Sequence record: LR999871
Reading direction: 5' to 3' (one strand)
DNA from: Escherichia phage vB_Eco_Jura
Length of the DNA stretch: 64,000 nucleotides
A program made the translations under genes and the position numbers. Position 1 is the stretch's first letter. The number at the start of each line of letters is the position of its first letter. This document shows, in pieces, positions 43,458 through 57,076 of this stretch. The notes under the pieces were generated by a model, which did not search any database, was not told the origin of the DNA, and was given only the letters and a program-made list of their open reading frames with translations.

Positions 43458-44142
43458 CAATAATATCCTCGTCTTCTCGAACCAGTGTGGAACCTGCAAT
43501 TACTTTAGTAGGTGTACCGGCTTCAATAGCTGCTTTCTGAGCCTCAGCCAACTGGGTTAGTGTGTTCTTGAGTTCAGTCAATCCAGAGTTTTCTCTCAAA
43601 TCCAGATTGATATTAGTAACAGCATCCTTCGGTTTCTGGAGGTGAGTAAGGATAGAGTTGGCAGCATCACACTGTACCTTCTCACTGGTAGCATTCTTCA
43701 TGAGCCATGCCTGATGGTTCAATGCTTCCTGAAACAAATCCTGATTAACAATCCATACTGGAATCAGTGATTGTTCCATAATGAGGTTTACTAACTTACC
43801 TCTATGGTAAGCAGATACATAAGCAGAGATGTCCTTCTCACTGGTTCCCCTTGCTACTAATTCAGCTTGTCTGTTGGGGAATGTTTTGAAGTAAGCATCT
43901 TTGTTGCTATACCCCATGTGTTTGTAAGTAACATATTGAACAGCATTAAGGTAATCCTGGGTCTTAAACTTCCCATCCTTCATCACCCCAGCATAAGTCA
44001 CAAAGTTATTTCTAATTTGCTCTGCTGCTGTCTGGTCTTGGGTCACATTGTTAATCATGTTTACCAGTTGGTCAGTAACACTGCTTTTAAACTGGGGAGG
44101 CAATGCAGAAACAATGTCTTTCTTCGTCAGTAGTGTGCTCAT
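43450..44142 (-). CDS. terminase small subunit candidate (230 aa)
   Basis: First gene of the minus-strand operon (ATG after AGGAAG), directly upstream of and overlapping the large terminase; by position only. Confidence 0.35.
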   Translation of the reverse strand: MSTLLTKKDIVSALPPQFKSSVTDQLVNMINNVTQDQTAAEQIRNNFVTYAGVMKDGKFKTQDYLNAVQYVTYKHMGYSNKDAYFKTFPNRQAELVARGTSEKDISAYVSAYHRGKLVNLIMEQSLIPVWIVNQDLFQEALNHQAWLMKNATSEKVQCDAANSILTHLQKPKDAVTNINLDLRENSGLTELKNTLTQLAEAQKAAIEAGTPTKVIAGSTLVREDEDIIDV

Positions 44143-44269
44143 AGTCTTCCTACAAATTATCTAGAGTGAAGAGGATTCTTTTCTTGGGGTTAGCACCCCT
44201 TGCAGAAACCTATACATAGATTTAGACTTTAGACTTTCTTTAGTCTCCTTACAATAGTAAGACAGAGAC

Positions 44270-44611
44270 ATGGGGAGCCTATTGCCCAAAGGAACCAGTA
44301 ACATGAGACTATTCTATAGTTTTGACGGTAATGACCAATGGAATGAGATAGACTTCAGTAAAATAGGTGGAGCTATCCCAGTTGGAGGGGCTATGCCAGG
44401 TGACCATATCTTATGTCACGATGAGGAGTCTTTCCATTACATCTCAGGTATGATGTTAATCAATAACGTCACTGGGTTTACTGTCCATAAACCTGCACCA
44501 GTACGTGTCATTACCAAGCCTATCGAGGGTCTTGCATTCTTTACAAGAATACCTCAAAGTATCTCTATCAAACGACAGCGTGACGCCATCGAGATGACCG
44601 TGGTTGCTTGA
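44270..44611 (+). CDS. hypothetical protein (113 aa)
   Basis: ATG-initiated ORF, weak SD; first plus-strand gene after the divergent junction. Confidence 0.4.
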   Translation: MGSLLPKGTSNMRLFYSFDGNDQWNEIDFSKIGGAIPVGGAMPGDHILCHDEESFHYISGMMLINNVTGFTVHKPAPVRVITKPIEGLAFFTRIPQSISIKRQRDAIEMTVVA

Positions 44612-44774
44612 TAAGCCATTGCCCGCCCAGGAGTTGGTGGCGGGAAACAGGGAACTGTTTGAATAACCACTCCAGCTACATTCACCTATCTCCAAGACAC
44701 CTTTGTTATCTGCCATTGGGTGATGAGTAGTATCAGAGAGAACTGATTTAACAAACACACTCGGTATAGGAATT

Positions 44775-44797
44775 GGGAGCCAAATGGCTCCCTTTTT
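44775..44797 (+). terminator. rho-independent terminator
   Basis: Stem GGGAGCC/GGCTCCC with loop AAAT, then TTTTT. Confidence 0.6.
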
Positions 44798-44821
44798 CTT
44801 TTATGAACCAAGGAGTTCTAT

Positions 44822-45187
44822 ATGAACATTCGTCCTAATGAAGTTTATGGTATCAACCTAGAATACACTACAAACAAACCTGCTCTATTTCACTGTGGTT
44901 CCACCAATCTATTCCATGCTATGTGTGGTAATACCAAACCTCTTTACTTACCCGAATCAGACGATACTCATGCCCTACTAGGTAACTGGTTCTTAGAAGG
45001 TAAAGACATTAGTACCATTCTCCTTGAACCAAGGAAGAAAGTAGCAATACCTACTAATGCATGGAATAACGAAGTCATTTACTTCCTCGCACCTGAAGGC
45101 TTTGAACCAGTGATAGAACAGAATCACTTTAATCATGCAGTTACTTTCTACTTCAGAGAGACTTCAAAGTTATCTGCTTATAAATAA
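44822..45187 (+). CDS. hypothetical protein (121 aa)
   Basis: ATG preceded by AAGGAG at optimal spacing. Confidence 0.6.
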   Translation: MNIRPNEVYGINLEYTTNKPALFHCGSTNLFHAMCGNTKPLYLPESDDTHALLGNWFLEGKDISTILLEPRKKVAIPTNAWNNEVIYFLAPEGFEPVIEQNHFNHAVTFYFRETSKLSAYK

Positions 45188-45195
45188 GGAAAGCT

Positions 45196-45324
45196 ATGTG
45201 GTATATAACAGTTAAAGGTTTACCCGAACCAGTGATGATAGATAGCCTGGCATTCGTAGAAGTAGGTCATCCTATTCTTATAGAAGGTAAGTTGTATGAA
45301 GTTGTTAGTATTTATAAGAGATAA
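45196..45324 (+). CDS. candidate small protein (42 aa), absent from the ORF track
   Basis: ATG 4 nt after AAGGAAA; encodes MWYITVKGLPEPVMIDSLAFVEVGHPILIEGKLYEVVSIYKR. Confidence 0.4.
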   Translation: MWYITVKGLPEPVMIDSLAFVEVGHPILIEGKLYEVVSIYKR

Positions 45325-45432
45325 ATAGGAAGTCTATTAGATAGATACCCTATAATTTTTTCTTAGTGAAAATAGTCATAGTTACTTATGAGTTCAGTAT
45401 TTGGTGGGGCTACACCCCTTACACCATAAGCA

Positions 45433-45442
45433 CCCCCCCCCC
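45433..45442. repeat. poly(C) homopolymer tract (10 nt)
   Basis: Uninterrupted run of 10 C in the non-coding stretch 45325-45555, about 50 bp upstream of hairpin motif copy 1. Confidence 0.8.
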
Positions 45443-45491
45443 TGTCTTTACTAGTGTAGCCTTAGCCTACCCCACCTTGTACACGTTACAC

Positions 45492-45510
45492 GTTGCTTCG
45501 CAACTTATGG
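45492..45510 (+). promoter_or_regulatory. hairpin promoter candidate 1 (virion-RNAP type)
   Basis: GTTGC-TTC-GCAAC (5-bp stem, 3-nt loop) then CTTATGG; shares the 16-nt pattern GCT[CT]CGC-NN-CTT[TA]TGG with two other copies. 46 nt upstream of the ATG at 45556. Confidence 0.45.
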
Positions 45511-45555
45511 ACATGTTGTCCGTATCTTATCAATCAACTATTGGAGACTAATACT

Positions 45556-45882
45556 ATGACTACTCAGGCTAACGTTCGTATGACTGTAGGAACTCTGTTG
45601 GGTACTGTTAACGAAGCAGCAACTACTGTAGCTGATACATTCGGTACTGCTACTAAAGCAGTAGGTATGCTTAATCGTTATGTAACTAAACAAGCAGATA
45701 AACAAATCATTCGTGACAAATTAGAAATGCATGAGTTTACCAATAAACTTATTGAAGAAACTGCAATGCAAGAAGCTATTCGTCAGAAACAAATCTTAGA
45801 CTTCTGCAAAGATGAACAAAACAAAGAATTGTTCTCTAATGCCTATGACCGTCTTAGCAAAATCTTAGCAGACTCTAAATAA
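45556..45882 (+). CDS. early protein (108 aa), function unknown
   Basis: Track start 45493 is a TTG inside hairpin copy 1; first ATG at 45556 follows GGAG. Confidence 0.6.
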   Translation: MTTQANVRMTVGTLLGTVNEAATTVADTFGTATKAVGMLNRYVTKQADKQIIRDKLEMHEFTNKLIEETAMQEAIRQKQILDFCKDEQNKELFSNAYDRLSKILADSK

Positions 45883-45894
45883 TAACAAACAAAT

Positions 45895-45918
45895 GGAGGC
45901 TCCTCGGAGTCTCCTTTT
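45895..45918 (+). terminator. rho-independent terminator
   Basis: Stem GGAGGCTC/GAGTCTCC (one G-U) with loop CTCG, then TTTT; 13 nt after the 45882 stop. Confidence 0.5.
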
Positions 45919-45960
45919 ACATAGAACCGATAGTTCAATAACTATCTACTTTAAAGATAA

Positions 45961-45979
45961 GAAGCTCCGCTTCTTTTGG
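45961..45979 (+). promoter_or_regulatory. hairpin promoter candidate 2 (virion-RNAP type)
   Basis: GAAGC-TCC-GCTTC (5-bp stem, 3-nt loop) then CTTTTGG; core GCTCCGC-NN-CTTTTGG identical to copy 3. Confidence 0.45.
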
Positions 45980-46086
45980 ATGAAGTAATGCATCCAATCC
46001 TGTATGAAATCTTAACCTTTTGTCTGGGATTACTTACCGACAAAGTAGTCTCAACTAATCAAAATCAACTATCTGGAGAGTACAAA

Positions 46087-46473
46087 ATGGCTATCACTAC
46101 TTTTGCTAAAACCTTTGGTCAGGCTTCTACTAAAACCGAATCCAACAATGGTTCTCGTCCAAAAGCTCAGTTCTGGATTAACGTTGGCTATGTAGCTAAT
46201 GAAGGCACTGAAGATGAACGTTTCATCTCTCTGCCTACTGGTATTCCACTGGATACTCAGGAGCATCTGCCAACCAATTCCTCTAACGAAGACTTCCGTG
46301 CAATGCGTTGTGCACAGAACGATTTGTTAGACCAACTGATGGAATTTGCTAAGACTCTGGAACCGGGTCAAGAAGGAGTTATCTCACTGCAAGTTCAACT
46401 TCGTCGAGTTAAAGAAGAAGCTCCTGCTATCTCAGCAAGTGAGAATAAATATGCTCGTAAACTGACTTTCTAA
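46087..46473 (+). CDS. early protein (128 aa), function unknown
   Basis: Track start 45976 is the TTG inside the promoter motif; ATG at 46087 has a strong SD (GGAGAG, 7-nt spacing). An alternative ATG at 45988 has a weak SD. Confidence 0.55.
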
Positions 46474-46481
46474 TCTCTATA

Positions 46482-46506
46482 GGACTACCTTCGGGTAGTC
46501 CTTTTT
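46482..46506 (+). terminator. rho-independent terminator (UUCG tetraloop)
   Basis: Stem GGACTACC/GGTAGTCC, loop TTCG, then TTTTT; 9 nt after the 46473 stop. Confidence 0.7.
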
Positions 46507-46615
46507 AATTTTAACTATCTAAATACTAAAGTAGAGATTTTGACCCTTTTCGACGAAGGGATACTAAAAAGTAATGGATAGTTTGAGCAGATGTTTTAGA
46601 AGAAGGAGTATACAG

Positions 46616-46930
46616 ATGCATCCTCTTATAAAACGATTCCTGATGGACTATCAGGAGTGGTTAGATAATGGAGCCAGTGAACCTCATTACCTGTTTGATA
46701 GGGGTAGTGGACTGTGTGTTCAACTAGGCAAATATCTTAGAAGACAGCCAATCAGTGAAGAAACAGTAGATACTCTGTGTAAGAGCTTTACTCATTTACT
46801 TCCTGATAATGATACCAATCTACCATTCAATGTAGATGTTCTCGACTACATGATGGAATGTTCTGATGGAAGATGTCATCTGAACCAAAGTCGAATTAAT
46901 TGGATTAAGAGTCAGTTGGAGAGTAAGTAA
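46616..46930 (+). CDS. early protein (104 aa), function unknown
   Basis: Track ATG at 46574 has no SD; the in-frame ATG at 46616 follows AAGGAG. Confidence 0.55.
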   Translation: MHPLIKRFLMDYQEWLDNGASEPHYLFDRGSGLCVQLGKYLRRQPISEETVDTLCKSFTHLLPDNDTNLPFNVDVLDYMMECSDGRCHLNQSRINWIKSQLESK

Positions 46931-46933
46931 ATT

Positions 46934-47371
46934 ATGTCATATGAAATTGTAAAACATTGGACTTCTAAGGCTGGGCTGAAGGCTTGGGTATTGCTGGTAA
47001 ATGGTGGTAGCCATCATTGTGGTTATGTGGAAATACCAGAAGCATTACTGGATAAAAACTTCTATGACTATATATGTGATGATGAAGAAACACTTCATAT
47101 TACAGTACATGGTGGAGTTACCTATCAAGGTGTTCCTCAGTGGGCTGATGGGATTAAAGTCATAGGTTATGACTGTGCTCATGCAGGGGATAAACTGAAA
47201 TGTCCTAAACAATTCATTGGCTCTCTTAGGGAGAGACTCTATGAGGATTCTTATGGAGTATGGCGAGATGAAGAATACTGCATCAATGAATGTGAAAGCA
47301 TGGCAGACCAGTTAATTAACCTGATACCAAAATTAGGGTTTAACGATGAAATTCAGAACAGTAATGGTTAA
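46934..47371 (+). CDS. early protein (145 aa), His/Cys-rich, function unknown
   Basis: ATG-initiated; contains HHCGYV, VHGG, GYDCAHAGD, suggesting a metal site; no family recognised. Confidence 0.55.
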   Translation: MSYEIVKHWTSKAGLKAWVLLVNGGSHHCGYVEIPEALLDKNFYDYICDDEETLHITVHGGVTYQGVPQWADGIKVIGYDCAHAGDKLKCPKQFIGSLRERLYEDSYGVWRDEEYCINECESMADQLINLIPKLGFNDEIQNSNG

Positions 47372-47543
47372 TGCTCTTGATACCAGGGGTAATGAAATCA
47401 TTAGCTATAAAGTGCAAGGCTTTAAATGGTTCAAATGGAAAACATTAACTAGCTTTAAAGAATTTGAGAAAGATAAAGCTATTAAGTTAACCAAGAAATT
47501 GAACCAACGTAAGAAGATTAAATTAGTTACTGTAATTAAATAA
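47346..47543 (+). CDS. small basic protein candidate (65 aa)
   Basis: ATG inside the 3' end of the upstream gene in another frame; Lys-rich; no clear SD. Confidence 0.3.
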   Translation: MKFRTVMVNALDTRGNEIISYKVQGFKWFKWKTLTSFKEFEKDKAIKLTKKLNQRKKIKLVTVIK

Positions 47544-47553
47544 GGATAAGGCA

Positions 47554-47712
47554 ATGCGTAAATCACTAATCATGGGAACCAAAGAAGACGTTGCTAAGAT
47601 GAAAGCTAAACGTCAGATGAATAAAGCAGTAACGTTTGCAGAACGTTATAGTACGTCTGAACCAGTACGTCGTATTGTTACTTTCAACCATCCAGCTATT
47701 AAGGGTATGTAA
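47554..47712 (+). CDS. candidate small protein (52 aa), absent from the ORF track
   Basis: ATG 7 nt after AAGGA; MRKSLIMGTKEDVAKMKAKRQMNKAVTFAERYSTSEPVRRIVTFNHPAIKGM; its stop overlaps the next ATG (TAATG). Confidence 0.4.
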   Translation: MRKSLIMGTKEDVAKMKAKRQMNKAVTFAERYSTSEPVRRIVTFNHPAIKGM

Positions 47713-47921
47713 TGCAAACTAAAGATAAGAAAGACTTAGAACGTCTTCTCCGTGTATATGGTGATTATGCATTGTTAGCAGAGATAACTAATATTATCGA
47801 AGAAGACTGTCGTAACGGTTATGCCAATAACCCACAAGCAATAATTCATCGTGATGCAGTAGTGCTTAGAGAAGCAGTCAGTAAGATGCAAGCATTACAT
47901 CCATTAAGACAGCGAGCATAA
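47712..47921 (+). CDS. early protein (69 aa)
   Basis: ATG with TAATG overlap; followed by a GC hairpin and T-rich tract. Confidence 0.5.
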   Translation: MQTKDKKDLERLLRVYGDYALLAEITNIIEEDCRNGYANNPQAIIHRDAVVLREAVSKMQALHPLRQRA

Positions 47922-47925
47922 ATAG

Positions 47926-47956
47926 GAGGGGGCTACTAAGCCCTCTTCTTATTTTT
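47926..47956 (+). terminator. terminator candidate
   Basis: GC-rich stem GAGGG/CCCTC around a 10-nt loop, then TTCTTATTTTT. Confidence 0.4.
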
Positions 47957-47994
47957 ATCGTGGTTATTAAGCAACTATCTTAGAGGAAGGAATA

Positions 47995-48210
47995 ATGGAA
48001 CAGTTAAACTACGGTTATAAGATTAAACGCAATCAAGTAAGAGGTTCTTGGTTATTTCTCGTTTATGGTAAACCAATCTATGAATTACATCGTGGAGAGA
48101 AATCCAAGACCTATTACGTAACTCATATTGCTACAGGAAAAACTCCTGCATGTGCAGGATTGCTTCGTGATGCAATTATGAAAGCATGTATGTTAGAAGG
48201 ACTTCTATGA
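47995..48210 (+). CDS. early protein (71 aa)
   Basis: ATG preceded by GAGGAAGGA. Confidence 0.55.
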   Translation: MEQLNYGYKIKRNQVRGSWLFLVYGKPIYELHRGEKSKTYYVTHIATGKTPACAGLLRDAIMKACMLEGLL

Positions 48211-48521
48211 ACCAAATCATTGCTATCCCGCAGCATAAAGCTCGTATTGCTGACAGGAATATTCGTATTCATTATCCAATGCCTTTGAGTAATCCATTTC
48301 AGAAAAATGAGAGAACCACGGATGAAGATATAGCAGCAGCTTATGAGGCATATCTTCGTAACCGTTTGGTAAGTGGTGACAAGCTCATTACGGCTGAAAT
48401 GGAACGAATTGCTAAATTCGTTATAGATGATACTGACAAACCCGTTGGCCTCATTGGTAATGAACTGGAAGTGAATGTAATCCGTAAGATTATTATGGAG
48501 GCTCTTAATGGGAATCAGTGA
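48207..48521 (+). CDS. early protein (104 aa)
   Basis: Track start 48186 trimmed to the ATG at 48207, which follows AGAAGGA and overlaps the upstream stop (ATGA). Confidence 0.55.
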   Translation: MNQIIAIPQHKARIADRNIRIHYPMPLSNPFQKNERTTDEDIAAAYEAYLRNRLVSGDKLITAEMERIAKFVIDDTDKPVGLIGNELEVNVIRKIIMEALNGNQ

Positions 48522-48684
48522 ATCCCAGGCTATGGCTATTAAACAGTTAGCCTTCAACTGCCTTAGTGCTATGAAGGCATTTAATGAAGCAAAAACTTTC
48601 CCTGACCAGAATAAAGCTCGTATTCGACTTTATCAGTCTAAGAAAGATTTTGAAGAATATCTGGAAAGTATTACGGTGAAATAA
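48508..48684 (+). CDS. candidate small protein (58 aa), absent from the ORF track
   Basis: ATG 7 nt after GGAGG; fills the gap between annotated ORFs; stop overlaps the next ATG (TAATG). Confidence 0.45.
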   Translation: MGISESQAMAIKQLAFNCLSAMKAFNEAKTFPDQNKARIRLYQSKKDFEEYLESITVK

Positions 48685-49004
48685 TGAAAACAATATTAAT
48701 TGTTCATGATGCTGATTTTAATGATGTTGATAAAATGATGCGTAATATTGATTATGTAGCTCAGACAACTCCAGCATTTAAAGAAGAATTTACTCTATAT
48801 TGTGATGCTAATTCACCATTAGTTCCCATTCTGAAAGAAGCTGGTTTACCCTTCTCTACAGATAATTTCCCTGAAGAACCTGATTATGTAATTTCATTTA
48901 TTTATGACTTACATGATGGCTCAGAACCAAGTGAATTGACTATGAGTCAATGGAAATCCAGAAGACCTGTATATGCATTTCAGGTAGTTAAATCAAGGAG
49001 TTAA
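48684..49004 (+). CDS. early protein (106 aa)
   Basis: ATG in a TAATG overlap; no motif recognised. Confidence 0.55.
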   Translation: MKTILIVHDADFNDVDKMMRNIDYVAQTTPAFKEEFTLYCDANSPLVPILKEAGLPFSTDNFPEEPDYVISFIYDLHDGSEPSELTMSQWKSRRPVYAFQVVKSRS

Positions 49005-49006
49005 CT

Positions 49007-49375
49007 ATGTTAGGTGATAACACTAATGCTCTGTTTGGAGTGTCAGCCAGACCTATTATCATTGTTAATAAACATCATGGTAAAAAGGGTGAATATATTG
49101 GGCGTGGTTCTCCTCTGGGTAATCCATTCGTTATTGGTAAAGATGGAACCAGAGAAGAAGTAATTGCCAAATATAAAGTATGGCTACAAGAACAGATTGA
49201 TAAAGGTAATCCAGTTGTACTGGATGAATTAAATCGTCTTGGTAATAAAGCCATTGATGAAAAAGGATTAGCTTTACAGTGCTTCTGTTATCCAAAACCT
49301 TGTCATGGCGAGGTTATTAAAGAGAAGTTAGTAAAAGCTATGTATAACTACTTTGTGGAAAATCCTAATGGATAA
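49007..49375 (+). CDS. DUF4326-like protein (GNP motif), 122 aa
   Basis: ATG preceded by AAGGAG; YIGRGSPLGNPF ... QCFCYPKPCHGEV matches the DUF4326 hallmark as I recall it (Gly-Asn-Pro motif plus C-terminal Cys/His cluster). Confidence 0.5.
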   Translation: MLGDNTNALFGVSARPIIIVNKHHGKKGEYIGRGSPLGNPFVIGKDGTREEVIAKYKVWLQEQIDKGNPVVLDELNRLGNKAIDEKGLALQCFCYPKPCHGEVIKEKLVKAMYNYFVENPNG

Positions 49376-49553
49376 ACAATGCAAATGTGGTAAAGGCTAT
49401 GTATCCCAATGGGATGGTAAATGTGGTCATTGTAGAACCAAGAAAGAACAACGTGACCATGAATATGCACTTCAGGAAATGATTGTACCTGTTGAGAATT
49501 TAGGTATGGCTCCACTTGAGGCTTACAAATACATAAGGAGATTATGCAAATGA
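49368..49553 (+). CDS. small zinc-ribbon protein (61 aa)
   Basis: Track TTG start trimmed to the ATG at 49368; MDKQCKCGKGYVSQWDGKCGHCRTKK has a C-x-C ... C-x2-C arrangement. Confidence 0.45.
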   Translation: MDKQCKCGKGYVSQWDGKCGHCRTKKEQRDHEYALQEMIVPVENLGMAPLEAYKYIRRLCK

Positions 49554-49930
49554 AAGAAGTATTCGTATTTGGTTCTAACCTTGCTGGTGTACATGGTGCA
49601 GGTGCTGCAAAGACAGCATATAAGAAACATGGAGCCAGATGGGGTAAAGGGCATGGTCATTATGGTGACAGCTACGCTATTCCCACTAAAGATACCAATA
49701 TCAAAACGATGACTATTGAAGACATTCGTACATTTGTAAACGCCTTCATTGTCTATGCTGCTAATCATCCAGAACTTAACTTTAAAGTTACTCGTGTAGG
49801 TTGTGGATTAGCTGGTATTGATGATTCTGTTATGGCCTCTATGTTTGAAAATGCCACTGATAACTGTTCCTTTGACTTAGCATGGAAAAGTTACTTAGGG
49901 GATGATTTCAACTACTGGGGAACGTTCTAA
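49544..49930 (+). CDS. hypothetical protein with N-terminal glycine-rich loop (128 aa)
   Basis: ATG preceded by AGGAG; N-terminus VFVFGSNLAGVHGAGAAKTA...GDSYAIPTK looks like a beta-strand plus Gly-rich nucleotide-binding loop; family not resolved. Confidence 0.5.
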   Translation: MQMKEVFVFGSNLAGVHGAGAAKTAYKKHGARWGKGHGHYGDSYAIPTKDTNIKTMTIEDIRTFVNAFIVYAANHPELNFKVTRVGCGLAGIDDSVMASMFENATDNCSFDLAWKSYLGDDFNYWGTF

Positions 49931-49947
49931 CTCATACGTTAGGCAAT

Positions 49948-49968
49948 AAGCTGCTCCGCAGCTTTTGG
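49948..49968 (+). promoter_or_regulatory. hairpin promoter candidate 3 (virion-RNAP type), upstream of the RNAP subunit genes
   Basis: AAGCTGC-TCC-GCAGCTT (7-bp stem, 3-nt loop) then TTGG; core GCTCCGC-AG-CTTTTGG; 37 nt before the ATG at 50005. Confidence 0.45.
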
Positions 49969-50004
49969 TAATTAATATGTTTAACCAATTTTGGAGAATA
50001 TGCG

Positions 50005-50817
50005 ATGTCTACTATCGAACATCAGATGCACCTCGAAAAGCTGTACAACAAGAACCAACTGTTACCAAGAATGCGTCAGGAGTTTGAAGAAAACTCTGGT
50101 ATTGATTTCAAAGCCTTCTTTGCACATATAGGCATTGATTACAAATTTGGCATTGATGCAATGGTTCAAATGGCTCTGCATAAGCGAGCTGACCTACCAA
50201 CATTAGTTGGTACATTGCGTCATCATTGCAAATCTGCACAGGAAGTAGCAGACAACCTTTTTAAGATGGCAAGTGAGGATTGCTTTAACTTTGACCCGAC
50301 CATCGACAAGTTCATTGTCATTTATACAATCAGCGATGACGTACAGCATGAACTGGATTCATTTCAATATCCACTACCTATGGTAGTACGTCCTAAGCTG
50401 TTAACTAAGAATTATGGTACTGGGTACTTCACATGTAATAAGAGTGTGATTCTTAAGAAGAACCATACTGACGATGACATCTGCTTAGACCATCTGAACC
50501 GTATGAACAAGATTCCATTGTCTATCAATTGGGATGTAGCTCATATGGTTAAAAATGAATGGGCTAATCTGGATAAACCGAAAGAAGGTGAAACTCGTCA
50601 GGAGTTTGAAAAACGTGTACGTGCATTCCAGAAATATGACCGTACTGCACATGAAGTAATGGGTTTATTGACCCAGGAAGGCAATAAGTTCTATCTGACT
50701 CATCGTCCGGATAAACGTGGTCGTACCTATTGCCAAGGTTATCATGTAACATACCAGGGAACTTCTTGGTGTAAAGCCGTGATTGAACTTGCTGATAAGG
50801 AACTTATCAATGATTAA
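50005..50817 (+). CDS. phage RNA polymerase, small (N-terminal-type) subunit, 270 aa
   Basis: ATG preceded by GGAGAA. Assigned from its pairing with the catalytic-subunit gene downstream and the 270/404-aa sizes I recall for the N4 two-subunit enzyme; no catalytic motif expected here. Confidence 0.55.
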   Translation: MSTIEHQMHLEKLYNKNQLLPRMRQEFEENSGIDFKAFFAHIGIDYKFGIDAMVQMALHKRADLPTLVGTLRHHCKSAQEVADNLFKMASEDCFNFDPTIDKFIVIYTISDDVQHELDSFQYPLPMVVRPKLLTKNYGTGYFTCNKSVILKKNHTDDDICLDHLNRMNKIPLSINWDVAHMVKNEWANLDKPKEGETRQEFEKRVRAFQKYDRTAHEVMGLLTQEGNKFYLTHRPDKRGRTYCQGYHVTYQGTSWCKAVIELADKELIND

Positions 50818-51319
50818 AGACAGAATGCCTATGGGTTACTGGAACAAACCAATAGAAGAATTAGCAATAGCTCACCCAAAAGAAGCTGCTAATAGTGCTA
50901 GTGGTTACATACGTATATCCAGAAACAATAGGATTCATTATTTACATCGTTGGTTGTGGGAACAAAAACATGGTGCTATCCCTGCTGGACACACCATTGA
51001 CCATCTTAATGGAATCCGGACTGATTGCCGTTGGGAAAACATGCGTTGTATCCCTTGGGCAATTAACTTACGTAATAGTACAAAGCGTGCTGATAACACG
51101 TCAGGAGTAACAGGTGTCTCACTATGGAAATCTCCAAAAGGAGTGTTCTGGAGAGCAACTTGTACTGACAACTTAACAGGAAAACAACGATGTAAGGTGT
51201 TTTCCATAAATAAATACGGTTACAACTTTGCATTTGAATTAGCATGTGATGCTCGTGCCGATATGATTGAACGCCTGAACCAACAAGGTGCAGGTTATAC
51301 CGACCGTCACGGTCAATAA
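50810..51319 (+). CDS. HNH homing endonuclease with AP2-like DNA-binding domain
   Basis: Track start 50783 trimmed to the ATG at 50810 (after AAGGA, overlapping the upstream stop). HNH core GHTIDHLNGIRTDCRWENMRCIPWAINLRN; C-terminal SGVTGVSLWKSPKGVFWRA is AP2-like. Confidence 0.75.
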   Translation: MIKDRMPMGYWNKPIEELAIAHPKEAANSASGYIRISRNNRIHYLHRWLWEQKHGAIPAGHTIDHLNGIRTDCRWENMRCIPWAINLRNSTKRADNTSGVTGVSLWKSPKGVFWRATCTDNLTGKQRCKVFSINKYGYNFAFELACDARADMIERLNQQGAGYTDRHGQ

Positions 51320-51331
51320 TCCCTATAAGCA

Positions 51332-51352
51332 GGCTCTCCATAGTGGGGAGCC
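51332..51352 (+). other. 8-bp hairpin in the RNA leader of the catalytic RNAP subunit gene
   Basis: GGCTCTCC/GGGGAGCC (one G-U) with loop ATAGT, followed by an A/G-rich SD region rather than a T tract. Confidence 0.4.
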
Positions 51353-51373
51353 AAGAAGCAAGAGGAATATACA

Positions 51374-52588
51374 ATGCAAACTTTTACTGCCCGTGAATAT
51401 CTGAAAATTGACATTGCTAATAACTATGGTCTGGATAAAGAAGACTGGGATGACCGTATTGCATGGTTCGATAAGAATGAGAACAACCTGCTGAACCTTG
51501 TAAGAGAAGCTGAAGAACCAGCCCTGTTCTATGCTGGTGTTAAAGCATGGATGGACGTTAAGGAAGGTAAGCCAATTGGTTATCCTGTTGCACTGGATGC
51601 TACATCATCTGGTCTACAGATTCTGGCTTGCCTGACTGGTGACCGTAGAGCTGCTGAACTATGTAACGTTGTTAACTATCGTGATGAAAGTGGCAAAGTT
51701 AAACGTCGTGATGCTTATACAGTTATCTACAACAAGATGCTGAACACTCTTGGTAAAGGTGCTCGTATCAAACGTAATGACTGTAAACAAGCAATCATGA
51801 CTGCTCTGTATGGTTCAGAGGCTAAACCAAAGGAAGTATTTGGTGAAGGCATTATGCTCAACGTATTTGAAAGCACAATGAATGTGGAAGCACCTGCTGT
51901 ATGGGAATTGAATAAATTCTGGTTACAGTGTGGTAATCCAGAGGCTTTCGTATATCACTGGGTAATGCCAGATGGCTTTAACGTATATATCAAAGTAATG
52001 GTAAATGAAGTGGAGACTGTCCACTTCTTAGATAAGCCGTATGACTGTGTTCGTAAAGTACAAGGTACTGAAGAGAAGACTCGTATGCTATCTGCCAATA
52101 CCACCCACTCTATTGATGGCCTAGTAGTACGTGAGCTGGTTCGTCGTTGTGACTATGACAAGAACCAGATTGAATACATCAAGGCTCTTTGCAATGGTGA
52201 AGCTGAATATAAGACTTCTGAAAAGAACTATGGCAAAGCAATGGAACTGTGGGGCTACTATGAGAAGACAGGATTCCTGACTGCTCGTATCTTTGATTAT
52301 CTGGATTCTGAAACTATTAAATTAGTAAATACTCAGGACATTCTAGACCTGATTGAATCCATGCCTAAGAAACCATTCCATGTACTCACTGTACATGACT
52401 GCTTCCGTTGCCTGCCTAACTATGGCAATGACATTCGTCGTCAGTACAACAACCTGTTAGCTACTATTGCTAAAGGTGACTTACTATCTTTCATTATGAG
52501 CCAGGTTCTAGGCCAAGAAGTTACTATTGGCAAACTAGACCCGACTCTATGGGAAGATGTATTAGAAACCGAATACGCTCTATCTTAA
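51374..52588 (+). CDS. phage RNA polymerase, catalytic subunit (T7-like palm), 404 aa
   Basis: ATG preceded by AGAGGAA. T7 RNAP-type motifs in order: PVALDATSSGLQ (motif A, D...SG-Q), RNDCKQAIMTALYGS (motif B, R-x3-K-x7-YG), VHDCF (motif C). Confidence 0.8.
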   Translation: MQTFTAREYLKIDIANNYGLDKEDWDDRIAWFDKNENNLLNLVREAEEPALFYAGVKAWMDVKEGKPIGYPVALDATSSGLQILACLTGDRRAAELCNVVNYRDESGKVKRRDAYTVIYNKMLNTLGKGARIKRNDCKQAIMTALYGSEAKPKEVFGEGIMLNVFESTMNVEAPAVWELNKFWLQCGNPEAFVYHWVMPDGFNVYIKVMVNEVETVHFLDKPYDCVRKVQGTEEKTRMLSANTTHSIDGLVVRELVRRCDYDKNQIEYIKALCNGEAEYKTSEKNYGKAMELWGYYEKTGFLTARIFDYLDSETIKLVNTQDILDLIESMPKKPFHVLTVHDCFRCLPNYGNDIRRQYNNLLATIAKGDLLSFIMSQVLGQEVTIGKLDPTLWEDVLETEYALS

Positions 52589-52594
52589 TAACTA

Positions 52595-52627
52595 AGGCTA
52601 TCCCTACGGGGGTAGCCTTTATTTTTT
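52595..52627 (+). terminator. strong rho-independent terminator after the RNAP genes
   Basis: 10-bp stem AGGCTATCCC/GGGGGTAGCCT (one G-U), loop TACG, then TTATTTTTTT. Confidence 0.7.
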
Positions 52628-52672
52628 TAGTAAATCATAATGGATAGGCATTTAACCTATGAGGAAATTAAA

Positions 52673-53512
52673 ATGCCTGTTCTTAAAGTGATGTTCCATA
52701 AAGACACCAACGTAGCTACTGTACTGGATGCCAGTGGTAGCCTTAGTGATGGTTCCGTTGAGGTGGGTACTTTCCATCATCCTGATGAAACCTATCCCGA
52801 TAGTGTAACTATCTATCATGGTGTACGTGACCTGCTGTATAAACGCAGTGCTAAAGACCCATCTCAAACTGCTTCTTACCCAAATAACATTATCAATATG
52901 CAAGTTATCAGTATTGATATGAAGGCAACTCCTCGCCTGATTTTGGGTACTGCATTGCCTCGTGTAATCTCTACTATTGAAGGTAAAGATGTAACCTGGC
53001 ATGTAGATGTTGCTGGTGGTAAAGCACCATTGACTTACAAGTGGCAGTTTAAAGCTAATACTGTAGGTGCTGCTTTCGCTGATATTGATTCCGGAGAGAA
53101 TCCTACAGCTAAAACTGCAACTCTTATTAATCATGCAGTAACTGCTGAATCTGCTGGTACTTATAAAGTCATCGTTACTGATGCTAACGGTACTACTATC
53201 GAGAGTTCTTCTCTGCTGGTTGTAGGAGTTCAGGAACCACCTGAAGTAGCTTCTATTGTTGCTTATCCAAGTCCACTGGCTCTATCAGTAGCTGATGATA
53301 TTACCAATGGTAAAACAGTTAAGTTTTCTTCCCTGCCTGCTGGCTCTTTGATTGGTACTCTGTCCATTAAGACCCAGCCTGACAGTGGTAAAGCTACTGC
53401 TGAGATTAGTGGTAATGTACTGACAGTTAAACCTGTAGCCGCAGGTGACACTACTGTAGTGGTCACCAACGGAACCAAGGAAGTAACTGTTACGGTTAAT
53501 GTTACAGAGTAA
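52673..53512 (+). CDS. Ig-like domain protein, capsid decoration candidate (279 aa)
   Basis: Track ATG at 52640 has no SD; ATG at 52673 follows GAGGAAA. Thr/Val/Ser-rich beta-strand pattern (VTAESAGTYKVIVTDANGTT; VTNGTKEVTVTVNVTE) typical of Ig-like (BIG2-type) domains. Confidence 0.6.
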   Translation: MPVLKVMFHKDTNVATVLDASGSLSDGSVEVGTFHHPDETYPDSVTIYHGVRDLLYKRSAKDPSQTASYPNNIINMQVISIDMKATPRLILGTALPRVISTIEGKDVTWHVDVAGGKAPLTYKWQFKANTVGAAFADIDSGENPTAKTATLINHAVTAESAGTYKVIVTDANGTTIESSSLLVVGVQEPPEVASIVAYPSPLALSVADDITNGKTVKFSSLPAGSLIGTLSIKTQPDSGKATAEISGNVLTVKPVAAGDTTVVVTNGTKEVTVTVNVTE

Positions 53513-53533
53513 TGTGATTGTTTTTATGAATGT

Positions 53534-53556
53534 AGCCCTCCTTGTGAGGGCTTTTT
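53534..53556 (+). terminator. rho-independent terminator
   Basis: Stem AGCCCTC/GAGGGCT, loop CTTGT, then TTTT. Confidence 0.65.
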
Positions 53557-53581
53557 AGTATCTATAGGAGAGTAAATAATT

Positions 53582-53896
53582 ATGGCTAATAAGAACCGTC
53601 TTCGTGTATGGCATATCCCTCAAGTACCCGGCAAAGCCTTCTATGTTGAAGTAGATTCAGTAGAAGAAGGTGTACGTATCATTGATATACTAGCCAACTA
53701 TGACCTATTCCAGTATGAGAACAATATCAAAGGTGATTACTGCAATGTCTCTGGTTTACAGATGTATGATGAACATATCACTGATGATGAAATGGAAGAG
53801 ATGGGTCTGACTGACCGTTGGGTAGACTGGTACTATGAAGATGACCAGAGCTTTTTTGATAACCCGAAAGAGTATTTGAATAATCTCAAGAAGTAA
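53582..53896 (+). CDS. acidic protein (104 aa), function unknown
   Basis: ATG preceded by AGGAGAG; Asp/Glu/Tyr-rich C-terminus. Confidence 0.6.
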   Translation: MANKNRLRVWHIPQVPGKAFYVEVDSVEEGVRIIDILANYDLFQYENNIKGDYCNVSGLQMYDEHITDDEMEEMGLTDRWVDWYYEDDQSFFDNPKEYLNNLKK

Positions 53897-53936
53897 TTTC
53901 TTGGGGTTAATGACCCTTATTAATTCCTTATCCTTT

Positions 53937-53959
53937 GCCCTCCTATGGAGGGCTTTTTT
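53937..53959 (+). terminator. rho-independent terminator
   Basis: Stem GCCCTCC/GGAGGGC, loop TAT, then TTTTTT; the ORF-track start at 53935 lies inside this hairpin and is rejected. Confidence 0.7.
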
Positions 53960-53970
53960 ACGGAGTACAA

Positions 53971-54177
53971 ATGTTTAAGTTCTTAGACCTTATCTGGGCA
54001 GTCATTTTGCTGGTTGCTACAGGCTTTGTATATGGCTTCTTGCTCCCATCAATGATGTCTGCTTTAGACAGCATCATTGTTGTTATGGGCTTGATAGTCT
54101 GTATTGTGTGGCCTCTTATCGTAGGCCGTATCGTTTATCTTACAGTTAAGAAAAGGATGAGAAGAAAACATGTATAA
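53971..54177 (+). CDS. small two-TM membrane protein (68 aa), partner of the SPFH gene
   Basis: ATG preceded by ACGGAG; two hydrophobic helices and a basic C-terminus (KKRMRRKHV); 3' end overlaps the SPFH gene start. Confidence 0.5.
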   Translation: MFKFLDLIWAVILLVATGFVYGFLLPSMMSALDSIIVVMGLIVCIVWPLIVGRIVYLTVKKRMRRKHV

Positions 54178-55006
54178 GTACATTGCAGTAGCAATTGCAG
54201 GGCTAATCATTGCTCTAAGTTTAACGAGCTGCTATGACCGAGTTGAACCAGGTAATGTAGGTATTATCGTTAATCGTCTCGGTGAAGATAAAGGTGTGGA
54301 AAATGAGGTTAAAGGTGTAGGCCGTTACTGGCTCACTTGGAATGAAGAACTTTATACATTCCCGACCTTTAAGCAGATGAAGACCTATGATGGTCTGTTT
54401 TACTTCCAACTGTCTGATGGTACTCAGATAGGCCACCAGATGGCTATCAGCTATAAAGTGAACCCTACTAAGGTAACTAATATCTTCCAGACGTATCGTA
54501 AGGGAGTTAATGAAATTACCGAGCAGGATTTACGACAACGTATTGCTGATGTACTTAACAGACAGGGTAACCTGATTAACACTGATACATTTATTGATGG
54601 TGGTAAATCTAAGCTACTGGATAGTGTCACTGACACAATCCGTAAAGAGATGGAACCAGTAGGGATTGATATTATTGCTATCTCCTGGATTGGTGCTCCT
54701 GAATACCCTGATAATGTTAAACGTGCCATTAATGCCAAAGTAGAAGCTACTCAGAAAACTCTGCAACGTGAGCAAGAGATTCAGCAACGTGTAGCTGAAG
54801 CTAATATGGAACGTGAACAAGCTAAGGGTGTAGCAGATGCTATCCTGATTAAAGCTAAAGCAGAGGCTGATGCTATTCGTTTACGTGGTGAAGCACTCAC
54901 CGAGAACCCAAATGTAATGCAACTGGAAGCCATTAATAAGTGGAATGGTACATTACCTACCACAATGATTCCTGGGGCTACTACACCTTTCGTTAATGTG
55001 AAATAA
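54170..55006 (+). CDS. SPFH/band-7 (stomatin/prohibitin/HflK-C-like) lipoprotein
   Basis: N-terminal lipoprotein signal IAGLIIALSLTSC; SPFH-type core (VEPGNVGIIVNRLGE ... ISYKVNP) followed by an Ala/Glu/Gln-rich coiled coil (QREQEIQQRVAEANMEREQAKGVADAILIKAKAEADAIRLRGEA). Confidence 0.6.
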   Translation: MYKYIAVAIAGLIIALSLTSCYDRVEPGNVGIIVNRLGEDKGVENEVKGVGRYWLTWNEELYTFPTFKQMKTYDGLFYFQLSDGTQIGHQMAISYKVNPTKVTNIFQTYRKGVNEITEQDLRQRIADVLNRQGNLINTDTFIDGGKSKLLDSVTDTIRKEMEPVGIDIIAISWIGAPEYPDNVKRAINAKVEATQKTLQREQEIQQRVAEANMEREQAKGVADAILIKAKAEADAIRLRGEALTENPNVMQLEAINKWNGTLPTTMIPGATTPFVNVK

Positions 55007-55013
55007 CTAAGCA

Positions 55014-55042
55014 AACCCACCATTACGGTGGGTTTATTTTTT
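55014..55042 (+). terminator. rho-independent terminator
   Basis: Stem AACCCACC/GGTGGGTT, loop ATTAC, then TTATTTTTT. Confidence 0.7.
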
Positions 55043-55068
55043 GAAGTTATCTAACACTGGGTATTCCT

Positions 55069-55293
55069 ATGAAAGTAAATATTTTACGCCGTAAGAAAGT
55101 TCCTTTCTTTCAAATCAATTGTGGTTCATGCTTTCAACACGATGATGACTACTATATGAAGTGTAGTTATCAATCCAAAGAACACTTCTATGGTGTGAAT
55201 TTACAAACAGGTCATCTGTTCACATTTGATAATAATGACTTTGTTTATCCTGTGACCTTAGAAGCATGTATTCCTGACCCATTTAATAAATAG
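55069..55293 (+). CDS. hypothetical protein (74 aa)
   Basis: ATG-initiated; weak SD; Cys/His-containing. Confidence 0.45.
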   Translation: MKVNILRRKKVPFFQINCGSCFQHDDDYYMKCSYQSKEHFYGVNLQTGHLFTFDNNDFVYPVTLEACIPDPFNK

Positions 55294-55294
55294 T

Positions 55295-55651
55295 ATGGCT
55301 CAAGAAAAGAATCGTCGTCAGACACTTATCGAACGTATTCAGGCCAGAATCAAATTACAGGACTTAGGCTATACCGTTAATGGTCAGCCTAGTCTCTGTC
55401 ACATCTGGACTGGTTCACATTCAGGTAATGGACGTGGTGGGCAATATGGCAGGATTTCCGTGAATGGAGTTACCTCTGCAACTCACATTATTGCCTATAC
55501 CCATTATCATGGTTATATCCCCAATAAGATGCAAGTAGACCATCTCTGTAATAATCGTCTGTGCTGTAACCCTGAACATCTTGAATTGGTTACTCACCAA
55601 GAGAACCAGAGAAGAAGGGCTAAGCGTTCTAAATCTAAAGGAAATAAATAA
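55295..55651 (+). CDS. HNH endonuclease (second copy)
   Basis: ATG 2 nt after the upstream stop; HIWTGSHSGNGRGGQYGRISVNG ... VDHLCNNRLCCNPEHLELVTHQENQRR is a typical HNH nuclease core with a basic tail. Confidence 0.7.
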   Translation: MAQEKNRRQTLIERIQARIKLQDLGYTVNGQPSLCHIWTGSHSGNGRGGQYGRISVNGVTSATHIIAYTHYHGYIPNKMQVDHLCNNRLCCNPEHLELVTHQENQRRRAKRSKSKGNK

Positions 55652-55822
55652 ATGATTAAAAAACTTATTTGTAAACTTATTGCAGCAATCTTAATTAGTA
55701 TTATTGGTATTGCATGGGTAATTTCTACTCCAGATAACGTTATGCAACAAATTTATTATGCTGTGTATACATCAACCTCTTTTGTTTGGGTTTATGTAAT
55801 GTACCGTATTTGTAGCGACTAA
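55652..55822 (+). CDS. candidate small membrane protein (56 aa), absent from the ORF track
   Basis: ATG right after the HNH stop with AAGGAAA upstream; MIKKLICKLIAAILISIIGIAWVISTPDNVMQQIYYAVYTSTSFVWVYVMYRICSD, two hydrophobic segments. Confidence 0.4.
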   Translation: MIKKLICKLIAAILISIIGIAWVISTPDNVMQQIYYAVYTSTSFVWVYVMYRICSD

Positions 55823-55851
55823 TACTTAATATAGCTTAACTGGAGAGTAAA

Positions 55852-56910
55852 ATGGCTAGTATTGATTCTATTGCCGTATGTAATCCACGGCAGGTACGTA
55901 AATTTGTTGAACACTGTATCCGTTCAGGATTGGTTCCATTTATCACTTCATCTCCTGGTATGGGTAAATCTGCAATTGTTCATCAGATTGCAGAAGATTT
56001 TGGTCTGAAACTGATTGACCATCGTCTGTCTACTTCAGCACCAGAAGACCTGTCAGGTCTGCCTCGTTTTAAAGAAAATGGTCGTGCTGAATTTGCTCCA
56101 TTTGACGAGCTATTCCCACTGGAAGGGGATACTGTACCTGAAGGATTTAATGGCTGGCTCCTTTTTCTCGATGAGTTTAACTCTGCTCGTAAAGAGATTC
56201 AGGCTGCTGCTTATAAACTGGTACTCGACCGTATGACTGGTCAGAAGAAGCTACATCCTTATGTAGCTATCGTATGTGCTGGTAACAAAGCAACTGACCG
56301 TGCCATTACTAATAACCTGTCTACAGCTATGCAATCACGCCTTATTCATCTGGAAATGGAGACTGATTTTGATGTCTTTATGGAAGATGTAGCTATCCCT
56401 AACAAGTGGGATGAACGTGTAATTGCATTCCTGAATGCTAACCCAAATAAACTGAATGATTTTGAACCAGACCATCAAGAGAAGACTTTCTGTTGTTCTC
56501 GTACATGGGAGTTCGTTAACAAGATTGTTTCCATTCTCCCACCGGGACCGATTGATAGTGAAATGACTCTGCTGTTAGCAGGCACTATCACTTCTGGTGT
56601 AGCAACATCATTCGTCCAGTTTACTCAGGTCTATAGCAACATGGTGTCTTTGAATGAGATTTTGGATAATCCTAAGAAAGCTCGTATGCCTGAAGACAAT
56701 AACCTGTTGTGGGCTGTAGTCACTTCACTAATTAACAATACTGACGAAGATAATCATTCGAAAATCTTTGATTACGTTGAACGTATGCCGTTTACGTTCA
56801 AGGTTTTGTACTACCGTTCTGTAGGTAGTTTGGTTCCAGCTTTGGTTAAATTACCAAACTGGCGTGTTGCTGCAATCACATTATCTAAATACGTTCATGG
56901 TTCCAATTAA
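55852..56910 (+). CDS. AAA+ ATPase, MoxR-like
   Basis: ATG preceded by GGAGAG; Walker A SSPGMGKSAIV, Walker B LLFLDEFN, sensor-like VCAGN. Confidence 0.75.
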   Translation: MASIDSIAVCNPRQVRKFVEHCIRSGLVPFITSSPGMGKSAIVHQIAEDFGLKLIDHRLSTSAPEDLSGLPRFKENGRAEFAPFDELFPLEGDTVPEGFNGWLLFLDEFNSARKEIQAAAYKLVLDRMTGQKKLHPYVAIVCAGNKATDRAITNNLSTAMQSRLIHLEMETDFDVFMEDVAIPNKWDERVIAFLNANPNKLNDFEPDHQEKTFCCSRTWEFVNKIVSILPPGPIDSEMTLLLAGTITSGVATSFVQFTQVYSNMVSLNEILDNPKKARMPEDNNLLWAVVTSLINNTDEDNHSKIFDYVERMPFTFKVLYYRSVGSLVPALVKLPNWRVAAITLSKYVHGSN

Positions 56911-57076
56911 CAAGAAAGGAGTTACAGACCTCCTGTATGTTGCTGGCTTTAACGGTGAAGAAATTACCGTATATGCCCCAAGTCTGGCTGCTGCTAAACA
57001 AAAGGCAGTTGAATACTTTCGTCCAAAGAAACGTGTAGCCCATACTATTTGGGTTCATCTCGCAGAGGAAAACTGA
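56864..57076 (+). CDS. questionable small ORF (70 aa by track)
   Basis: Track start is TTG; the only in-frame ATG (56897) lacks an SD and lies inside the ATPase 3' end. Confidence 0.2.
   Translation: MLLQSHYLNTFMVPINKKGVTDLLYVAGFNGEEITVYAPSLAAAKQKAVEYFRPKKRVAHTIWVHLAEEN

Follow-up and report, generated by a model that had tools for sequence, protein, structure and literature searches.

Can a phage genome hold genes that an open reading frame (ORF) listing passes over? The question is raised by four short plus-strand frames in the window analysed here, a stretch of 64,000 nt from Escherichia phage vB_Eco_Jura (sequence record LR999871), which a preliminary description made from the letters alone had taken to be real small phage genes, coupled in translation to their neighbours and missing from the ORF track. 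All four are present exactly at the positions proposed for them, begin with ATG and have a length that is a multiple of three, and the sole reason for their omission is that length, the ORF listing defaulting to 60 amino acids (aa). They are the genes gp72, gp6, gp10 and gp23 of coliphage N4, already known as such, and nothing is missing from the public annotation. Our analysis indicates moreover that the four frames are almost certainly expressed genes, and the explanation that best accommodates the data as a whole, namely that of four real protein-coding genes for which early or host-directed roles can be proposed, is in our view very probable.

The identity of the frames follows from that of the genome. 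Comparison of positions 45000-56000 of the window with a phage collection by megablast returned 14 near-full-length matches, all of them to Enquatrovirus and at 98.4-99.4% identity, among which are the type phage N4 (EF056009 / NC_008720), AL25, PMBT57 and AlfredRasser. Judged by its sequence, the window is an N4-type coliphage genome of Enquatrovirus, 98-99% identical to N4. With window position 45402 taken as N4 position 0, an N4 coordinate n becomes window position 45402 + n (a conversion valid to gene 15), and the four frames match annotated N4 genes base for base in position (GenBank EF056009, RefSeq NC_008720; protein accessions YP_950550 for gp72, YP_950484 for gp6, YP_950488 for gp10 and YP_950501 for gp23). 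The N4 counterparts have equal lengths, relative coordinates, neighbours and junctions, and their products are 96-100% identical to those of Jura. The product of gp6 is the same in both phages, that of gp72 has P10 in place of the S of N4 (97.6% identity), that of gp10 has A24 and K58 in place of V and R (96.6%), and that of gp23 has I24 and I34 in place of V and L (96.4%); beyond these 0-2 substitutions per protein, nothing separates the Jura frames from the N4 genes. All four exact amino-acid sequences already have entries in NCBI and UniProt, named for instance 'gp72 [Escherichia phage N4]' or 'Gp6', and annotation for these genes is carried also by AL25 and further relatives. Each product matches a family of the PHROG collection: phrog_19797 for gp72 (E = 3e-31, residues 1-42), phrog_7648 for gp6 (E = 1.6e-26, residues 1-50), phrog_35919 for gp10 (E = 4e-45, residues 1-58) and phrog_23946 for gp23 (E = 3.9e-37, residues 1-56). 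As a discovery, the four genes thus carry little weight, having long been part of the N4 reference annotation and being found also in UniProt, PHROGs and BFVD; the main lesson of the locus is rather that a 60-codon ORF cut-off conceals a real share of phage genes.

Table 1. Positions in the window of the four small genes, their Shine-Dalgarno (SD) sequences and associated features; percentages rank the SD duplex energy among the plus-strand ATGs of the window.
Feature	Positions	Strand	Description
gp72	45196..45324	+	42 aa, 4.8 kDa; N4 69948-70076; last plus-strand gene before the right genome end
gp6	47554..47712	+	52 aa, 6.0 kDa, isoelectric point (pI) 10.7; N4 2152-2310
gp10	48508..48684	+	58 aa, 6.7 kDa; N4 3106-3282
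gp23	55652..55822	+	56 aa, 6.5 kDa; N4 9738-9908
SD of gp72	45186..45190	+	AAGGA, 5 nt before ATG; -6.2 kcal/mol, best 5%; overlaps gp71 stop codon (45185-45187)
SD of gp6	47542..47546	+	AAGGA, 7 nt before ATG; -6.0 kcal/mol, best 7%; overlaps gp5 stop codon (47541-47543)
SD of gp10	48497..48501	+	GGAGG, 6 nt before ATG; -9.3 kcal/mol, best 1%; inside gp9 3' end
SD of gp23	55638..55642	+	AAGGA, 9 nt before ATG; -5.6 kcal/mol, best 9%; inside gp22 3' end
gp22	55295..55651	+	HNH endonuclease directly upstream of gp23; Pfam HNH_3, E = 8.6e-20; N4 gp22
Early promoter hairpin, probable P2	45961..45973	+	GAAGC-TCC-GCTTC; closest hairpin of this type on the upstream side of gp6 and gp10
Intrinsic terminator after gp7	47924..47949	+	11-pair stem followed by T-run; closes gp3-gp7 unit; terminator annotated at the same place in AL25

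The preliminary description had named conservation in related phages as a check on its reading, and the frames are indeed conserved. All four frames are intact in some 13-15 close Enquatrovirus records and have full-length homologues of 40-85% identity in other genera. Searches with tblastn found intact homologues of gp72 in 22 phage records, down to 61% identity in Gamaleyavirus, and homologues of gp6 in 89 schitovirus records, down to 40% and spread over Enquatrovirinae and Humphriesvirinae on Escherichia, Klebsiella and Shigella, whilst the 15 records of gp10 comprise Enquatrovirus and Klebsiella phage MY01 (at 40%) and the 25 of gp23 comprise Enquatrovirus and KP8-like Klebsiella phages. 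Orthologous ORFs were extracted from 16 fetched loci, aligned and compared with the window, and all of them are open, start with ATG and have an SD-like sequence upstream. The ratios of non-synonymous to synonymous substitution rates (dN/dS) are 0.31-0.52 for gp72, 0.24-0.44 for gp6, 0.37 for gp10 and 0.23-0.51 for gp23; differences in length among homologues are all in frame, the homologous frames are full-length even in phages at 51-75% nucleotide identity, and in closer comparisons substitutions concentrate at codon position 3. As judged from these alignments, all four proteins are under purifying selection in related phages, which supports the original reading of the frames as real small coupled genes. 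Codon usage was scored as log-odds with the 27 ORFs of 200 aa or more as training set, a scale on which true segments of 50 codons have a mean of +0.54 and off-frames one of -0.96 bits per codon, and the proposed frame is the best of the six in every case (gp72 +0.09, gp6 +0.68, gp10 +0.49 and gp23 +0.41 bits per codon).

Signals for initiation and the arrangement of gene ends lend themselves to a similar reading. SD strength was measured as the energy of the duplex with the anti-SD sequence and ranked within the full set of 1271 plus-strand ATGs in the window, with the first ATG of each of 38 long ORFs as reference (median -5.9 kcal/mol). All four frames have a good SD, but the strength claimed for them holds only for gp10; the energies of the four equal those of long genes, and the other three are average. 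The junctions are as had been described, with stop and start overlaps typical of coupled genes. One base is shared by the stop codon of gp6 and the start of gp7 (TAATG, 47712) and by the stop of gp10 and the start of gp11 (48684), gp9 and gp10 overlap by 14 nt, and the stop of gp22 (55649-55651) abuts the ATG of gp23 (55651/55652). The gp6 homologue was examined in six relatives, and in five of them its start lies 8-19 nt inside the preceding gene, whichever gene that is. Since each small gene has its own SD, placed within the end of the preceding gene or immediately behind it, ribosomes finishing that gene could re-initiate there, as expected under translational coupling. The notion that the frames fill otherwise unexplained gaps needs correcting for gp72, which occupies just 129 of the 369 nt of its gap, the remainder containing the junction of the genome ends and the probable early promoter P1 discussed below. 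At that junction, window 45401/45402, the final position of the N4 record (70153, the right end) directly precedes its first (position 1, the left end), and the window assembly is therefore circularly permuted, of concatemer type or with a collapsed terminal repeat; ten consecutive C occupy 45433-45442, 31 nt inside the left genome end.

Strong plus-strand intrinsic terminators are found at 44775, 45895, 46481, 47924, 52594, 53534, 53937 and 55013, after gp70, gp1, gp2, gp7, gp16, gp17, gp18 and gp20, respectively, and several of them are annotated also in AL25. None separates the four genes from their upstream neighbours gp71, gp5, gp9 and gp22, and because of these positions each small gene lies inside a same-strand unit (gp71-gp72, gp3-gp7, gp8-gp16 and gp21-gp24 onward). 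A scan of the whole window for G:C-closed promoter hairpins with a 5-bp stem and a 3-nt loop (NNNGC-NNN-GCNNN) located only three, all on the plus strand, at 45492-45504, 45961-45973 and 49950-49962, before gp1, gp2 and gp15; the second and third share the flanks ATAA...TTTTGG. Such hairpins are described for N4 (PMC4496689), and those of the window probably correspond to P1, P2 and P3, the early promoters used by the virion RNA polymerase. The positions of the hairpins speak against a P3 upstream of gp3, and with it against gp6 as a direct product of P3. Lying between P2 and P3, gp6 and gp10 would therefore be early genes, reached by terminator read-through, or early-middle genes. By its position (N4 9.7 kb), gp23 belongs to the part of the genome that N4 RNA polymerase II transcribes (PMC4496689). 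Across positions 44000-57000 of the window, sigma-70-like promoters are depleted (22 found, as against 39.5 +/- 6.1 in shuffled sequences), which fits a phage using its own polymerases in this region, and intrinsic-terminator-like sites are enriched (23, as against 7.4 +/- 2.6).

Several observations weigh against reading the four frames as functional genes with the roles proposed here. The gp72 frame is no longer than chance allows in its gap (P = 0.20 in 20,000 shuffles of the 369 nt) and its codon-usage score is weak, close to zero, so that the coding case for this gene rests on conservation. The searchable literature yielded neither ribosome profiling nor proteomics data for N4-infected cells, and searches for experiments on the four gene products, for N4 omics and for anti-defence studies of this phage brought up nothing relevant. 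Pfam and NCBIfam hold no match for any of the four beyond sub-threshold noise (for gp10, DUF7230 at E = 0.088 and NifT at E = 0.078), sequence searches of the PDB with all four proteins yielded nothing meaningful, and a Foldseek comparison of the gp72 model with the PDB gave nothing informative (best E = 2.9). The PHROG label is 'unknown function' in all four cases, and functional statements on these proteins are inference. Finally, the terminator after gp2 (46481) stands between P2 and gp6, and early expression of gp6 therefore needs either read-through or a middle promoter.

The short frame and near-zero codon score of gp72, and the literature searches that yielded no expression data, would be compatible with chance ORFs in spacer DNA that are not translated into functional proteins. 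We regard this as very improbable in view of the full-length frames kept at the nucleotide divergence described above, with high aa conservation, in-frame indels and dN/dS below 0.55, of the lengths of gp6, gp10 and gp23, which exceed chance expectation (P ~0.005 for every one of the three, from 20,000 shuffles of the gap concerned), and of SD signals in the top 1-9%. Even for gp72, AlphaFold2 folds the protein from essentially one sequence at a mean predicted local distance difference test (pLDDT) score of 91.6. Real coding genes are hence the reading followed below.

The left-end block that holds gp6 and gp10 also contains gp8, the only small accessory protein of this region to have been characterised, which matches PF25713, the N4 DNA replication inhibitor family (E = 1.1e-18). 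Given that gp6 and gp10 stand among early accessory genes such as gp8, they too would most likely be made early and bind host proteins, by analogy with that gene. Among the four genes, gp6 stands out by its breadth and by its invariant ends around a hypervariable linker, which make it a reasonable candidate for host-interaction study in a classic model phage. In a large protein database it forms 77 clusters of 42-72 aa, the longest contigs of which measure 70-74 kb, in addition to the 89 phage records mentioned above. The protein is very basic (12 K/R in 52 aa), and a 28-member alignment shows invariant M1, R2, K3, S4, L5, I6, G8, T9, K10, D12 and V13 at one end and I41, T43, F44, N45 and H46 at the other. 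The corresponding motifs, MRKSLI.GTK.DV at the N-terminus and IVTFNH at the C-terminus, are present in 28 of the 28 members, and the linker between them varies in both sequence and length, from 15 to 50 residues. The AlphaFold2 model consists of a helix at residues 10-33 with extended ends, at a modest to low confidence (pLDDT 69), and offers no fold to search.

Invariance of this kind might also arise if nucleic-acid elements within the open frames, such as promoters, terminators or structured RNA, were what is being conserved, above all at the ends of gp6. Transcription signals are indeed dense in this region, with three promoter hairpins and eight terminators, and the first 13 gp6 codons are invariant at the protein level. 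Within the invariant motifs, however, third codon positions vary freely (AAA/AAG, CTA/TTA, GGA/GGT, ACC/ACT/ACG and CCA/CCG/CCT), and such synonymous variation places the constraint on the protein and not on a nucleic-acid element. The prevalence of third-position substitutions in closer comparisons argues in the same direction, no promoter hairpin or terminator lies inside any of the four frames, and searches of Rfam (E up to 1) and for tRNA genes returned no match overlapping them. Conservation of a nucleic-acid element is accordingly scarcely credible, and selection on the gp6 protein remains the explanation of its invariant ends.

What the gp6 protein might do can be outlined with varying degrees of assurance. 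It would bind its host partner by means of the two short end motifs, joined by a basic helix or flexible spacer, an arrangement that we put forward with considerable reservation. A bolder and rather unlikely version is that gp6 represents a new kind of host-takeover peptide of 42-72 aa, in which the invariant 13-residue N-terminus and the 7-8-residue C-terminus clamp one conserved protein of Escherichia, Klebsiella and Shigella, the linker between these docking motifs being free to evolve. Were this the case, the logic of the clamp would be analogous to the inhibition of host DNA replication by gp8, with a target that may be essential.

A role within the phage's own programme has been considered too, in which gp6 would be a cofactor of middle transcription, for instance a protein 'X' opening the AT-rich middle promoters for gp2 and RNA polymerase II. 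The strongly basic character of gp6 would suit such a function, and so would its location: in phage Pollock (Humphriesvirinae) it directly precedes a gp2-like gene, and in KpCHEMY26 it lies one gene upstream of a possible gp2 homologue, annotated as a DNA-binding protein; a review moreover states that the promoter-melting factor is unknown (PMC4496689). Against it, gp2 is found in 202 phage records, from Achromobacter, Erwinia, Rhizobium, Pseudomonas, Salmonella and other hosts, and gp6 in 89, restricted to Escherichia, Klebsiella and Shigella, although a 52-aa query is the less sensitive of the two. This narrower spread favours a host-specific target over a role in core transcription, within the limits that the short query sets to the comparison, and disfavours gp6 as a universal cofactor. 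The predicted structure, a single helix with floppy ends, is likewise not a DNA-binding fold, and we consider the cofactor improbable by comparison with a host-directed gp6. The homologue of Pollock (L010, 601-759) is 84.6% identical to N4 gp6, as opposed to 40-65% in the other genera examined, N4's own subfamily included, and a recent exchange is possible.

The sequence of gp10 suggests that it is probably a helical hairpin, with two helices joined by a TFPDQN turn; its conserved parts are IKQLAF.C and F.(E/Q)YLESI. An exhaustive HMMER search of 1.84 billion representatives added only three further small relatives. The homologue in Klebsiella phage MY01 is an intact ORF (L016, 1504-1680; PP056534.1, 40656-40832), 40% identical and unannotated in its GenBank record, and it overlaps the downstream gene as gp10 does in N4. 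Functional coupling of gp10 to that downstream gene was discarded, the MY01 neighbour (SLOG/GTP-binding-like, phrog_289) being unrelated to N4 gp11 (phrog_7827; BLASTP E = 25 or no alignment). An assignment to the TPR proteins was likewise rejected. Residues 1-29 align with the repeats of a 1058-aa TPR protein at a weak summed E of 7.6e-5, which we consider spurious; there is no Pfam TPR match, and the protein has room for one hairpin at most. Produced early, gp10 would act as a helical hairpin that binds a host protein, a suggestion that is tentative at best.

Of a quite different build, gp72 is confidently predicted to be a folded all-beta miniprotein, with four strands in the AlphaFold2 model. 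Its homologues in Gamaleyavirus have 44-45 aa and the same terminal position; the gene is the last of the plus strand before the right end in N4, St11Ph5, 24-32N and PE007 (linear records), and in pSb-1 (a circular record) and HK2 further plus-strand genes follow the homologue in the record. The homologue of 24-32N (L007, 801-935) is an intact ORF that lacks annotation in GenBank. Within the BFVD, Foldseek retrieved only N4 Gp72 itself and one uncharacterised protein of 43 aa, from Escherichia phage flopper of the Chaseviridae (UniProt A0A6B9WY99), with the predicted fold of gp72 at a template modelling score (TM-score) of 0.91, 40% identity and E = 8e-5. This protein belongs to a different phage family, is as uncharacterised as gp72, and went undetected by tblastn with gp72 at E up to 1e-3. 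Apart from near-identical clusters, nothing further came from the large protein database for either gp72 or gp23.

The fourth gene, gp23, is by the hydropathy of its product a predicted small membrane protein, adjoining an HNH gene as had been noted, its upstream neighbour gp22 being an HNH_3 endonuclease. Of the two hydrophobic segments ascribed to it, that at residues 5-24 is a clear membrane helix (Kyte-Doolittle 15-residue mean 2.85), but the second, at about residues 33-53, is aromatic and mildly hydrophobic (~1.0), below the usual threshold for a membrane helix; a conserved stretch, P.N.MQQIY.AV, leads into it. The homologues in Klebsiella phages KP8 and BaqKoxi have 61 aa and lie between HNH and ATPase genes, and gp23 itself shows both a full-length match to the family and a place between gp22 (HNH) and gp24 (ATPase). 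During the middle phase gp23 would insert into the inner membrane, where it might alter the envelope of the infected cell, for example by excluding further phage, rather than cause lysis; this is offered as a possibility with less than even support. A part in lysis, as a class II holin, pinholin or antiholin aiding the delayed lysis of N4, would be in keeping with small size, an N-terminal membrane helix and a second hydrophobic segment, and the annotators of KP8 named the homologue a protein with two transmembrane helical domains. Yet that second segment falls short of membrane-helix hydropathy, and the gene lies on the plus strand at N4 9.7 kb, beside HNH and ATPase genes and outside the lysis cassette. 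Lysis and lysis inhibition in N4 have been mapped to gp60/60a (spanins), gp61 (SAR endolysin), gp62 (holin) and gp63 (pinholin), with no mention of gp23 (bioRxiv 10.1101/2025.11.12.688109), and because of this a lytic role appears quite improbable, leaving a modification of the envelope as the preferred, if tentative, function of gp23.

The neighbourhood of these genes yielded further observations. Between the RNA polymerase II subunit genes gp15 (50005-50817) and gp16 (51374-52588) lies a plus-strand gene (50810-51319) for a homing endonuclease of 169 aa with HNH_3 and AP2 domains, the ATG of which overlaps the stop codon of gp15. Neither N4 nor any of the 14 close Enquatrovirus records has this insert of about 512 bp; its nearest counterparts (77.5% aa identity) stand beside the RNAP1/RNAP2 genes of the Gamaleyavirus phages UE-M3, UE-S5a and UE-M6, and a copy of 58.7% adjoins RNAP1 in Burkholderia phage HN03. 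Sub-threshold Pfam matches were seen for gp9 (48207-48521), to DUF4326 (E = 2.9e-4), a family that RefSeq assigns to gp12, and for gp21 (55069-55293), to the zinc-finger zf-UBP (E = 9.8e-4).

Two kinds of known system offer themselves for comparison with these small genes. For gp6 and gp10 the model is gp8, as a small phage protein that acts by binding a single host protein; it too is small (71 aa), and its gene lies on the plus strand in their left-end block, with 283 nt between it and gp6 on the upstream side and 298 nt between it and gp10 on the downstream side. Yano and Rothman-Denes reportedly identified the clamp loader as its target in 2011. None of the four frames matches PF25713 or any other Pfam family in a scan at E up to 1, and a mechanism shared with gp8 is a matter of analogy only. 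For gp23, class II holins and pinholins resemble the protein in size and in having an N-terminal helix followed by a second hydrophobic stretch, but gp23 has no sequence similarity to a named family and lies outside gp60-63. Its size and two-segment layout also resemble those of small phage membrane proteins of superinfection exclusion and immunity, such as Imm of phage T4.

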